A stretch of DNA of 32,000 bases from IMG/VR virus record IMGVR_UViG_3300022719_000283, positions 366,590 to 398,589 of that record. The stretch is one strand, 5' to 3'. The DNA comes from a virus (lineage: Duplodnaviria > Heunggongvirae > Uroviricota > Caudoviricetes). The notes under the pieces were generated by a model. The model was not told where the DNA came from, made no database searches, and worked only from the letters and a program-made list of their open reading frames with translations. The translations under genes and the position numbers were made by a program. How positions within the stretch are numbered: the first letter of the stretch is position 1; each line of letters opens with the position of its first letter. Of this stretch, positions 5,831 through 7,946 are shown piece after piece.

Positions 5831-5862
5831 AAAAACCGGGACCCTCGAAGAAGGGTCCCGGT
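5831..5862 (-). terminator. Rho-independent terminator (second of a tandem pair after tuf)
   Basis: On the minus strand, ACCGGGACCCU-UCUUCG-AGGGUCCCGGU forms a perfect 11-bp stem and is followed by UUUUUG. Confidence 0.6.
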
Positions 5863-5879
5863 AAAACAGCATCTTCATG

Positions 5880-5912
5880 AAAAAGCCCGGTGGGTTCAGG
5901 ATCCCACCGGGC
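5880..5912 (-). terminator. Rho-independent terminator immediately after the EF-Tu stop (possibly bidirectional)
   Basis: On the minus strand, GCCCGGUGGG-AUCCUGAA-CCCACCGGGC forms a 10-bp GC-rich stem and is followed by UUUUUC. On the plus strand the same stem is followed by CAGGUUUUU. Confidence 0.75.
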
Positions 5913-5919
5913 CAGGTTT

Positions 5920-7077
5920 TTAGGCGCTCACCTCCAGGACTACGCCTGCTCCGACCGTTTTTCCGCCTTCGCGGATGGCGAAGCGCATGCCGGGCTCACA
6001 GGCCACGGGCTTCTGGAGATTGAAGGTGATCTCCGCACGGTCACCGGGGTTCACTGATCCCACGTCTCCGACATCGACCACGGCGGTTACGTCGGCGGCG
6101 CCGAAGAAGAACTGGGGCTGGTACCCGGTCCCGAAACCGGTGTGACGACCTCCCTCCTTCTCGGAGAGGGTGAAAATCTCCGCCTTACCGACCTTGTGAG
6201 GCTTGATGGAGTCCGGCTTGATCGCCACCTGACCCCGCTGCACTGCATCACGCTCCACACCGCGCAGGAGAAGCCCGACATTGAGGCCCGCTTTGGCCGC
6301 CGGGATGTCCTTGTGGAACGCCTGGATGCCTGTCACGACCGCCCTGATGGGCTTGTTGTCCGTGCGACCGATGACCTCGACTTCGGTGCCTACGGGGATG
6401 CTTCCGCGCTCCACGCGACCGGTGACGACAGTCCCACGACCCGCGATGGTGCACACACCTTCGATGGGCATCAGGAAATCCCCTGACTCGTCACGCTCCG
6501 GGACCTTGAGGTGGCTGTCCATGGAGGATAGAAGCTCCTTGATGGGCTCGAGGTCATCTCCCTCGAGAGCTTTGAGCGCAGATCCCTTGATGATGGGTGT
6601 GTCCTTGAAACCCTGGGACTCAAGCATCTCGGTGACTTCCATCTCGACGAGCTCGAGCATCTCCGGATCGGCGATGTCCACCTTGTTGATGAACACGACC
6701 ATCTGGCCCACGTTTACCTGACGAGCAAGCAAGATGTGCTCACGCGTCTGGTGCTGGGGGCCCTGGCTTCCATCCACCAGAAGGATCGCCCCGTCCATCT
6801 GGCTCGCACCCGTGATCATGTTTTTGATGTAGTCCGCGTGACCCGGGCAATCGATGTGCGCGTAGTGACGGGTCTCGGACTCGTACTCGACGTGAGAAGC
6901 GGAGATCGTGATGCCACGCTCCTTCTCTTCCTTCGCATTGTCGATCTCCTCGAATGCCTTGGCGTTGCCCCCATGGAGCTCCGCGCAGATCTTCGTGATC
7001 GCGGCTGTGAGGGTGGTCTTCCCATGGTCGACGTGACCGATGGTTCCGACATTGAGGTGCTGCTTTTGCTCGTACAT
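5920..7077 (-). CDS. tuf: Elongation factor Tu (divergent, 385 aa)
   Basis: Starts [23 protein letters not shown] (P-loop). Also has [25 protein letters not shown] and the [16 protein letters not shown]-terminus. The track ORF (5920-7293) runs on through two tRNA genes. The true ATG is at 7075-7077. Confidence 0.93.
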
Positions 7078-7132
7078 TGGATTGTTGCGTCTTCTTTCTC
7101 CCCGTCTTTCCGGGGTGTCATCCTGAAGTCTT

Positions 7133-7217
7133 TGGTTGGTGGGGTCGGAATCGAACCGACCGTGCGTAATACGCTGCGGATTTACAGTCCGCTTCGCCAC
7201 CTTGGCTGTTCCCACCA
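7133..7217 (-). tRNA. tRNA-Tyr(GUA), bacterial class II type, CCA encoded
   Basis: Anticodon arm GCGGA-CTGTAAA-TCCGC, long variable arm, T arm GTCGG-TTCGATT-CCGAC, then CCCACCA-A-CCA. The 85-nt length matches bacterial tRNA-Tyr. The exact 5' end (U1 versus G1) and the D-arm register are uncertain by hand. Confidence 0.8.
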
Positions 7218-7237
7218 ATGTCACCGGGCACGTCCGA

Positions 7238-7308
7238 TCCGGTCGGAGGGATTCGAACCCCCGGGGGGCATGGATTTCATGCCGTCTGACCACTCAGACC
7301 TCGACCGG
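7238..7308 (-). tRNA. tRNA-like gene with a 5-nt anticodon loop (identity undetermined, no CCA encoded)
   Basis: CCGGTCG-AG-GTCT-GAGTGGTC-AGAC-G-GCATG-AAATC-CATGC-CCCCC-GGGGG-TTCGAAT-CCCTC-CGACCGG-A. The acceptor is 7/7 and the D and T arms are canonical. The total is 71 nt, two short, and both missing nucleotides are in the anticodon loop. The alternative fold GGCAT-GAAATCC-ATGCC lacks both U33 and nucleotide 26. Confidence 0.6.
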
Positions 7309-7502
7309 GAACGATCAGGGCTCGCTCCGTGGGCTTAGATGTGGCTCAGAGGTTTAGTCCACCTGAGCGTCCAGCCAACCCACGGAGCTGCAAATAAGCT
7401 CGATACGTCGCGTACATCTGCTTGGCTCCTTCCATGGTTGGGGTTCTCAGGTAATCCCGCCTCAAGCGGGTTTGTCAAGTGTAGTCGAGCTTGATGCAAA
7501 CG

Positions 7503-7946
7503 TCAAGAGAGAAAGTCCGAAAATTTGCTGTCCTTCGTGAAGACGGGCCAGCCTCCTTGAACCCCTTCTTCTGGGGTCTGATCCGTCCAGGTCCGGTGGG
7601 CTTCAGCAACCCATTCACCCACGTAGCTTCCGATGAAGTATTTCACGTCGTCCGGAATTTCAACCACGGCTACTCCAGTGTGCTCCTCACTGACCATGCC
7701 CTCTGATCCGAGTTCGTCGAAGACCTGAAGCAAGGTGGGGTCGTGACGAGGGAGGGTGCTAAGGAGCGAGTATCCCGAATCTTCGCGGTGTTGGGTCTTT
7801 TTCTCATCCCCGTAGGCATAATGGTTCGGCTCATCCACAAGCGGCATGTGCTCCGTGGAGGCCCAGTCGGCTCCGAGCTCTCGGGCACGCAGAATCGCTT
7901 TACGAGAAAGCCAAAGAACGCAGTCATGTGAGATCAGGACTCGCAT
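7503..7946 (-). CDS. Hypothetical protein (weak paralog of 22751-23152)
   Basis: 147-aa ORF with MRVLISHDCVLWLSRKAILRARELGADW..., PRHDPTLLQVFDELG... and VAVVEIPDDVKYFIGSYVGEWV. By eye the pattern is shared with the ORF at 22751. Confidence 0.6.
   Translation of the reverse strand: MRVLISHDCVLWLSRKAILRARELGADWASTEHMPLVDEPNHYAYGDEKKTQHREDSGYSLLSTLPRHDPTLLQVFDELGSEGMVSEEHTGVAVVEIPDDVKYFIGSYVGEWVAEAHRTWTDQTPEEGVQGGWPVFTKDSKFSDFLS

Follow-up and report, generated by a model that had tools for sequence, protein, structure and literature searches.

Why should a bacteriophage encode its own elongation factor Tu (EF-Tu), one of the most conserved and abundant of all bacterial proteins? The question is raised by a stretch of 32,000 nucleotides (the window, positions 366,590 to 398,589 of the IMG/VR virus record IMGVR_UViG_3300022719_000283) which possesses an EF-Tu gene directly downstream of a tRNA-Tyr gene. 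The reading favoured here is that the gene probably encodes a functional, GTP-driven EF-Tu belonging to a distinct mobile subfamily and serving phage translation. Carriage of EF-Tu by huge phages has been reported, with maintenance of translation efficiency as the proposed role (Al-Shayeb et al., 2020, PMC7162821).

The open reading frame as listed runs from 5920 to 7293 on the minus strand, a comparison with all relatives placing its start at the ATG at 7077, and its product terminates in ...VLEVSA. An earlier note on this locus, which did not give the strand correctly, described a complete EF-Tu with all GTPase motifs, domains 2 and 3 and a conserved C-terminus, and this description is borne out. 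The Pfam domains PF00009 (GTP_EFTU), PF03144 (D2) and PF03143 (D3) all pass threshold, while the score of 534.2 bits with the NCBIfam EF-Tu equivalog TIGR00485 exceeds the cut-off of 522.4 by a narrow margin. The protein can be aligned over its full length with solved EF-Tu structures (54-60% identity, E-value about 1e-145). Residues were compared in an alignment of 255 EF-Tu sequences and that of E. coli, with a numbering that agrees with the published positions E215, D216, H66, N273, and T382. The window protein keeps the P-loop, T61, D80-C-P-G-H84, H118, NKxD and SAL motifs, the helix D residues E144, L148, and E152, the residues K89, N90, R288, H66, E215, T228, and N273 and, in domain 3, R318, H319, Q329, T338, E378, and G379 as well as T382. 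Motifs G1-G5, the catalytic His84 and the Mg2+ ligands T25 and T61 are identical in the window protein and at least 97% conserved across 167 members of the subfamily described below. The six domain 3 residues from R318 to G379 touch the T-stem in EF-Tu structures, and together with K89, N90, R288, H84, H118, E144, L148, and E152 they make up the contacts with the tRNA body and 5′ end or with EF-Ts.

A predicted AlphaFold2 model, built on 28 subfamily members (mean predicted local distance difference test score 85.1, predicted template-modelling score 0.79), superposes on the closed GTP form of EF-Tu (1exm) and on the ternary complex with Phe-tRNA (1ttt) with a template-modelling (TM) score of 0.92, as against 0.55 for open GDP forms. 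The fold so modelled is the closed GTP form, able to hold aminoacyl-tRNA. The gene is under purifying selection, with pairwise ratios of non-synonymous to synonymous substitution (dN/dS, a calculation which had been proposed in the earlier note) of 0.066 and 0.148 with the syntenic phage relatives L151 and L152, respectively. Careful alignment suggests no inactivating substitutions, the finding that was to have undone the earlier proposal, and nothing else suggests inactivation either.

It is also these features that bear on a role outside translation, in which the protein would act as a structural cofactor of a replication or assembly complex, or as a decoy soaking up host sensors that use EF-Tu. 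There is precedent in the literature, as the Qbeta replicase has EF-Tu among its subunits, the T4 capsid protein is bound by it and Avs7 incorporates it through domains II-III. However, purifying selection acts on all residues on which GTP hydrolysis, nucleotide exchange and tRNA binding depend and the phage gene lies among tRNA genes in nearly every case, and such a role appears very improbable.

The protein is nevertheless not an ordinary EF-Tu. As the earlier note had remarked, substitutions relative to E. coli EF-Tu occur throughout and the N-terminus is shortened, by about nine residues in comparison with ordinary EF-Tu, a trait now seen to be clade-wide. Relatives listed among 5.8 billion proteins number at least 120 and are annotated plainly as EF-Tu or are unnamed; among the matches listed, most are about 380-400 amino acids (aa) in length, with identities from 92% down to about 66%. 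In a maximum-likelihood tree of 76 sequences, sampled with a bias toward relatives of the window protein, the variant is set apart from ordinary bacterial EF-Tu with support of 100/100 and a branch length of 0.27 on each side of the split, and the same split (support 100) was obtained in a tree of 88 rows with more taxa.

Signature sites were taken as those at least 90% conserved in 88 ordinary sequences yet replaced in the 167 variant sequences. Besides the missing N-terminal stretch of about nine residues, which includes Arg7, they comprise V104L, D109Q, M112Q, a deleted Gly164, the pocket replacements D216G (79% of variants), F218C/H (88%), E259Q (99%), and M260A, and further D266P, D272L, F304G, F323G, R333G (100%), T334A, G339A, and E348G. 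The window protein carries L104, Q109, Q112, Q259, and G333 and the short N-terminus of the subfamily; it lacks Arg7 and has D216G, F218C, E259Q, and R333G at positions where the ordinary residue is found in 98-100% of the 88 ordinary sequences. E215 and D216 line the amino-acid pocket and are described as strictly conserved in bacterial EF-Tu (Roy et al., PMC1904265), Asp216 being the counterpart of D228 of T. thermophilus (PMC1904265). On the evidence of these trees and residues the variant is a separate EF-Tu subfamily, and the window gene did not arise by drift from a housekeeping tuf.

R333G was considered as a subfamily marker by itself and dropped, since a pattern scan, which additionally turned up more variant copies, showed it in ordinary Opitutales EF-Tu and it is therefore not diagnostic alone. 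Both R333G and P53G, at positions which are otherwise near-invariant, are present in the ordinary EF-Tu of L190, L216, and about 70 further loci of Opitutales/Puniceicoccaceae, and the change at position 333 is convergent with that of the variant subfamily. It is worth mentioning that a second, separate group of EF-Tu genes is present on virus contigs (L020, L021, L022, and L024, IMG/VR contigs of 36-66 kb); their products are 47-52% identical to the window protein and form their own clade (support 100) beside ordinary EF-Tu.

The variant occurs in both phages and bacteria. The IMG/VR huge-phage contigs bearing it are 62-497 kb in size with a G+C content from 39% to 65%, and in nearly every case the gene lies inside a dense tRNA array (up to 30 tRNAs per 13 kb). 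On independent contigs of 142-203 kb the gene order tRNA arrays, EF-Tu, HAD, PcfJ, and CCA enzyme recurs, synteny being preserved on three such contigs. Among bacteria, one variant copy with 64-82% identity is found in 34 of the 61 sampled genomes of the family that holds a Nannocystaceae metagenome-assembled genome (MAG). It stands alone among unrelated genes, and the same genomes have two ordinary tuf genes which are about 17 kb apart and whose products are 55-60% identical to the window protein; in three complete genomes the variant lies about 300 kb from this pair. Extra variant copies are also present in Variovorax, Albitalea, Filomicrobium, Hellea, Thiodiazotropha, Polyangiaceae, Kofleriaceae, and Archangium, with Variovorax and Filomicrobium possessing two ordinary copies as well. 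A few MAG contigs on which the variant accompanies a tRNA array (L266, L297) may be phage DNA binned in error. Just downstream of the variant tuf, tRNA-Pro genes resembling part of the phage Pro/Arg/Leu tRNA array are located in two bacterial genomes (L126 1266-1434, L127 1358-1431), one being Paraliomyxa miuraensis.

When the subfamily tree is rooted on ordinary EF-Tu, the rooting on which the direction of the deepest transfers depends, its first branches are mostly phage contigs together with the Myxococcota MAG copies L032 and L221, and phage and bacterial rows interleave throughout. Constraining all phage copies to be monophyletic was rejected by the approximately unbiased (AU) test (p = 9e-44), as was monophyly of all Nannocystaceae chromosomal copies (p = 0.003), p-values which are weakened because both groups were named after the tree was seen. 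The window lineage consists of eight sequences, two with confirmed synteny with the window, and forms with five bacterial copies a clade (100/97) nested among other Nannocystaceae copies. The end branch of the window protein is 0.07 changes per column, so that the long viral branch considered in the earlier note is not what the phylogeny gives. Neither is there near-identity to a bacterial tuf, which that note would have taken for a chromosomal origin or contamination: the closest identities are 92% to a syntenic phage relative and at most 82% to any bacterial copy found. The flanks of phage and bacterial copies were found to have no genes in common beyond tRNA-Tyr, the leader and tuf, which argues that the bacterial copies are not inside recognizable prophages of the window type. 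The G+C content at third codon positions (GC3) is 0.78 in the phage EF-Tu gene, compared with 0.67 ± 0.06 in long open reading frames (ORFs) of the phage and 0.88-0.98 in the bacterial copies. Judging by such values, each variant copy carries the codon composition of its resident genome and none of the tuf transfers is recent.

The simplest reading of this history would be that the subfamily is old in huge phages, entered the Nannocystaceae with tRNA-Tyr and has since moved between these bacteria and phages more than once, an ancestor of the window phage most likely having taken its tRNA-Tyr/tuf module from a Nannocystaceae-type host. The shared module suggests the Nannocystaceae as the probable host family of the phage, perhaps with an Enhygromyxa-like host. 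The proposal of the earlier note that a fragment of a host operon had been captured is thus upheld in part. Phage copies do nest within bacterial copies and the module is shared with Nannocystaceae chromosomes, but its source is not the housekeeping operon; it is a third, stand-alone tuf, and the deepest branches are phage-borne.

The arrangement around the gene is given in Table 1.

Table 1. Features of the tRNA-Tyr/EF-Tu unit in the window
Feature	Coordinates	Strand	Evidence
Promoter-like site TTGACG-17-TACACT, upstream of the unit	7478..7506	minus	1 site found, 0.9 expected by chance
Small ORF MYATYRAYLQLRGLAGRSGGLNL with Shine-Dalgarno sequence, inside structured leader	7346..7417; with Shine-Dalgarno sequence 7346..7435	minus	Conserved peptide
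tRNA-like gene, degenerate homolog of a short tRNA-Tyr(GTA)	7238..7308	minus	ARAGORN; comparison with related phages
tRNA-Tyr(GTA) with odd D arm, directly upstream of EF-Tu	7133..7217	minus	ARAGORN
Conserved 55-nt leader with small hairpin and purine-rich ribosome-binding stretch	7078..7132	minus	Comparison of phages and bacteria
EF-Tu gene, short-N-terminus variant subfamily, 385 aa	5920..7077	minus	Pfam, TIGR00485, alignment, trees, AlphaFold2 model
Intrinsic terminator 1, 11-bp stem with 9 GC pairs, TTTTT	5884..5913	minus	Hairpin and T-run; counterpart in L151
Intrinsic terminator 2, 12-bp stem, TTTTT	5835..5862	minus	Hairpin and T-run; counterparts in L151 and L152

The tRNA-Tyr gene ends exactly 55 nt before the ATG and the two terminators follow the coding sequence, just as the earlier note had observed, and its span of 5831-7217 takes in terminators, coding sequence and tRNA. 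Its comparison with bacterial tRNA-tuf operons does not stand, as the ordinary order is Thr-Tyr-Gly-Thr-tuf rather than Tyr-tuf. The housekeeping operon of the Nannocystaceae has the arrangement Thr-Tyr-Gly-Thr-tuf-Trp, as in E. coli, whereas upstream of the window tuf there is just one tRNA-Tyr and a degenerate tRNA-Tyr-like gene. A lone tRNA-Tyr directly upstream of the variant tuf is found in the window, L151, L004, and L002/L025, and in L152 the two are separated by one inserted gene. On Nannocystaceae chromosomes the arrangement occurs at 9 of 30 loci, scattered across the clade, and it is also present in an Enhygromyxa MAG. The linkage was not seen among the other subfamily loci compared, outside the Nannocystaceae branch, and is therefore not a trait of the whole subfamily. 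Judged from this distribution, the link between tRNA-Tyr and tuf is inherited and not due to chance, the module being shared with Nannocystaceae chromosomes.

The window tRNA-Tyr has U1-A72 together with a D arm that is atypical and very short (ACAGCCAAGGTGGCGAAG). Its identity is 85-88% with the tRNA-Tyr preceding the variant tuf in Enhygromyxa salina (L029 7821-7903) and in genome G040 (L112 1334-1416), only 63% with that of the close phage relative L151 and 58-61% with the housekeeping tRNA-Tyr of Nannocystaceae. Since this tRNA is common to the phage and two Enhygromyxa-type genomes and not to the closest phage relative, a recent exchange of the tRNA by itself is suggested. The tRNA-like gene further upstream is labeled by ARAGORN as Ile(aat) with a 5-nt anticodon loop. 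It shares its acceptor, D and T arms with the 75-nt tRNA-Tyr(GTA) at L151 9761-9836 and L152 8340-8414, and its anticodon loop has degenerated in the window. Homologous short tRNA-Tyr(GTA) genes of about 75 nt without a long variable arm are present in L151, L152, and L004; to our knowledge, a tRNA-Tyr of such class I shape is unusual for bacteria and phages.

The peptide of the small ORF is conserved in L151, L152, and L153 as M[FN]ATYRxYSWLRG..., with Tyr codons 5 and 8 kept. The leader RNA containing it folds with -51.4 kcal/mol (z = -3.25) and has alternative pairings, in which the segment GGCTCCGTGGG pairs either with the Shine-Dalgarno sequence or with CCCACGGAGC downstream. There is no U-run terminator in this leader, which might function as a Tyr-sensing leader for the tRNA-Tyr/EF-Tu unit. 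Between tRNA-Tyr and EF-Tu, the motif CAGGxTGAC...CGGAAAGACGGG...GACGCAACAxTCCAATG is common to phages (the window, L151, and L004) and the bacterial loci L114, L131, and L134, while its 3′ half is present in L029 and L112. Its hairpin (7115-7100, minus strand) has a 5-bp stem with compensatory changes and a GAAAGA loop, and might serve in RNA processing or in the control of translation. At the other end of the unit, hairpins with T-runs occur at the same place in L151 (two long stems) and L152 (a short stem of 5 pairs and a stem of 13 pairs); as the stem sequences differ between these phages and the window, it is the terminator structure that is kept. The position of the promoter-like site fits the start of the unit.

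On the favoured reading, the gene would be transcribed as the last of a short unit comprising the leader ORF, two tRNA-Tyr-type genes, the leader hairpin and EF-Tu and ending at the two terminators. The variant EF-Tu would bind aminoacyl-tRNAs, including those of the phage's own 54 tRNAs, would deliver them to the ribosomes of the probable Nannocystaceae host and would be recycled by host EF-Ts, the outcome being extra elongation capacity or the replacement of capacity which the infected cell may lose. Because the aminoacyl/A76 pocket (D216G, F218C, E259Q, D272L) and the three-domain junction (R333G, T334A) are remodelled, its aminoacyl preference and its sensitivity to agents binding at these sites should differ from those of the host factor. 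Three observations weigh against this account. With Arg7 and Asp216 missing from the window protein, a cargo narrower than or different from that of general elongation is possible. Bacteria with two normal tuf genes retain the variant as a third copy, which favours a special role over mere extra capacity. Finally, the promoter call is no better than chance. The differences from ordinary EF-Tu in pocket and junction also leave two other readings as candidates.

One of these is that the variant is a carrier specialized for a single class of aminoacyl-tRNA, for instance the linked tRNA-Tyr species or tRNAs whose aminoacyl group is bulky or negatively charged and possibly non-standard. Dedicated factors of this sort exist, examples being SelB and the serine-specific mitochondrial EF-Tu2. 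Three acidic residues near the aminoacyl/A76 site are neutralized in the variant (D216G, E259Q, D272L) and F218 is replaced by Cys or His; the tRNA-Tyr that precedes it in phages and in the Nannocystaceae loci mentioned is divergent from the housekeeping tRNA-Tyr, and retention beside two normal tuf genes would also be in keeping with such a role. Moreover, the same two pocket positions are altered in the engineered factors EF-Sep (D217G, F219Y) and EF-pY (E216V, D217G, F219G), made for phosphoserine and phosphotyrosine, respectively (PMC6386890), in which Asp216 is likewise changed to Gly and Phe218 gives way to a residue that is smaller or otherwise different. These are laboratory constructs also changed at E215, H66, T228, or N273, however, and the natural variant keeps all four. 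Its T-stem and 5′-end contacts are those of a general EF-Tu, E215, a residue shown to reject Asp-tRNAAsn, is retained, and the pocket changes are also found in copies without an adjacent tRNA (Variovorax, Filomicrobium) and beside other tRNAs in basal phages. In the neighborhoods, nothing stood out as a dedicated synthetase or modifying enzyme, although no search aimed at such enzymes was made. Such a carrier is considered unlikely, if a possibility of some weight, and no data in this analysis imply a non-standard amino acid. A more specific form, in which an EF-Tu with a re-specified pocket travels with private tRNA genes and delivers an aminoacyl-tRNA (bulky, acidic or modified) which ordinary EF-Tu handles poorly, is decidedly unlikely; the same grade applies to its further part, that the Nannocystaceae/phage branch travels with a divergent tRNA-Tyr behind a leader ORF with Tyr codons for this purpose. 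If the pocket were indeed re-specified, the variant would be a natural counterpart of EF-Sep and EF-pY and a phage-borne route to altered decoding.

The other candidate is an insensitive spare, which would sustain translation once the ordinary EF-Tu has been put out of action, be it through blocking, cleavage, modification or hijacking, by a defence system, an interbacterial toxin or an antibiotic that binds EF-Tu. This is a broader form of the resistance device proposed in the earlier note. In the literature, Lit and type IV Thoeris cleave EF-Tu, Avs7 co-opts it and toxins hijack it, and the changed residues of the variant are found in the binding regions of two antibiotics, GE2270A (domain 2) and pulvomycin (three-domain junction). 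Residues 215-230, 256-264, and 273-277 form the GE2270A site, and R333C and T334A are pulvomycin-resistance changes. The EF-Tu3 of Streptomyces offers a precedent for a resistant extra copy (PMC4342817). However, the Lit site (RGITI, G59-I60) and the Doc site (T382), which the earlier note had rightly seen to be conserved, show no alteration, nor does the type IV Thoeris site R58, the only difference being R44 to K, and the device as then stated finds no backing at these sites; it is the aminoacyl pocket and the junction that do differ. R333G, as described, occurs in ordinary Opitutales EF-Tu too, neither a producer cluster nor a toxin consistently adjoins the variant tuf in the flanks compared, and antibiotic resistance as such would be of little gain to a phage. 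We regard this explanation as rather unlikely. If true, insensitivity of the variant to toxins, defences or antibiotics directed at EF-Tu would represent a new counter-defence principle.

The source genome is a single IMG/VR virus record of 618,736 bp with a CheckV completeness of 92% and a G+C content of 58.3%. Its 54 tRNA genes are arranged as isoacceptor blocks and it has just one EF-Tu gene. The neighbors of this gene encode a CCA-adding enzyme, a PcfJ-like protein, a HAD domain of RNA-repair proteins and an AlkB-type oxygenase, and by its gene content the neighborhood is an island of tRNA and translation-maintenance genes. No cultivated phage bearing the variant was found among GenBank phage records, and a megablast search of 25 kb of the window against phages gave as its sole match 49 nt at a tRNA-Pro attachment site. 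In the GenBank phage records all EF-Tu matches are less than 60% identical to the window protein and resemble host carry-over, several of the "phage" records concerned being actually bacterial contigs.

Such carry-over invites the view that the window is itself host DNA, whether through contamination, chimeric assembly or a mis-called bacterial element. The closest named relatives of the protein are bacterial, and searches of the genome with the Pfam models for terminase (PF17289, PF03237), HK97 capsid (PF05065), and sheath (PF04984) gave no matches. With PHROGs, however, searched with 20 long ORFs, there are matches to a portal protein (264111-265988, E-value 2e-32), a head-maturation-protease domain (1.5e-9), a tail fiber (4e-9), and RtcB, and neither a 16S rRNA gene nor an EF-Ts gene was found in the 618,736-bp record, which is accepted as that of a huge tailed phage. 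The 82% ceiling on identity to bacterial copies, the recurrence of the gene order on independent contigs, a GC3 inside the phage range and below that of the bacterial copies, and bacterial flanks in which only tRNA-Tyr and tuf are common also speak against a host origin. This explanation is largely refuted and can hardly be given credence.

Like the housekeeping EF-Tu (tufA/tufB; TIGR00485), the window protein has a three-domain fold, GTPase motifs and contacts with EF-Ts and the tRNA body. It differs in forming a separate clade without the N-terminal stretch of about nine residues and with changes at near-invariant sites, in being encoded outside the str and tufB operons and in being mobile between phages and bacteria. 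The EF-Tu genes reported by Al-Shayeb et al. (2020, PMC7162821) likewise belong to phages of more than 200 kb with tRNAs, tRNA-repair and translation genes; the passages of that report on these genes list them without an EF-Tu phylogeny or residue analysis, whereas here the phage copies are placed in one subfamily shared with bacterial extra copies and with a remodelled pocket. The presence of EF-Tu in huge phages is therefore already known, while for this subfamily, or for a third tuf in myxobacteria, no description was found in the open-access literature.

The nearest bacterial equivalent is the stand-alone copy which Nannocystaceae such as Enhygromyxa salina, Nannocystis, and Paraliomyxa possess as a third tuf and which bears the plain annotation "elongation factor Tu". 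It has the same signature residues at 64-82% identity and the leader hairpin, and an upstream tRNA-Tyr that in two genomes is 85-88% identical to that of the phage. It is, however, chromosomal with unrelated neighbors and a GC3 of 0.88-0.98, while the phage copy is part of a tRNA array and has two terminators in tandem downstream. The EF-Tu3 (actEF-Tu) of Streptomyces, which is stress-expressed and antibiotic-resistant, is likewise a divergent extra copy with changes at antibiotic-binding sites. Its lineage is probably a different one: an odd Micromonosporaceae copy (L211), possibly an actEF-Tu, groups with ordinary Actinomycetota EF-Tu, far from the window protein, in a set without a verified EF-Tu3. 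In a survey of translational GTPases the actEF-Tu of actinomycetes was the only clearly distinct EF-Tu-like subfamily named (Atkinson, 2015), and the variant subfamily was thus not recognized at that time.

A second, mobile EF-Tu subfamily in which the engine is kept and pocket residues described as strictly conserved are changed may be regarded as a ready-made natural experiment in EF-Tu specificity, and as a source of candidate parts for genetic-code engineering. It would also mean that huge phages do not simply borrow the housekeeping factor of their hosts and that they have a dedicated lineage, shared with these hosts and exchanged as a module of tRNA plus factor. For an uncultivated phage of 619 kb, the module provides a clue to the probable host among marine myxobacteria of the Nannocystaceae.

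The phage also encodes, outside the window, a Ser/Thr protein kinase (G000:C1:539711-541213) which is 38-45% identical to kinases that five Nannocystaceae genomes have no more than 10 kb away from the variant tuf. A linkage of such kinases to the bacterial variant tuf was considered, being present in 5 of 22 flanks, and was treated as chance, probably the case as myxobacteria carry very many kinases of this type.

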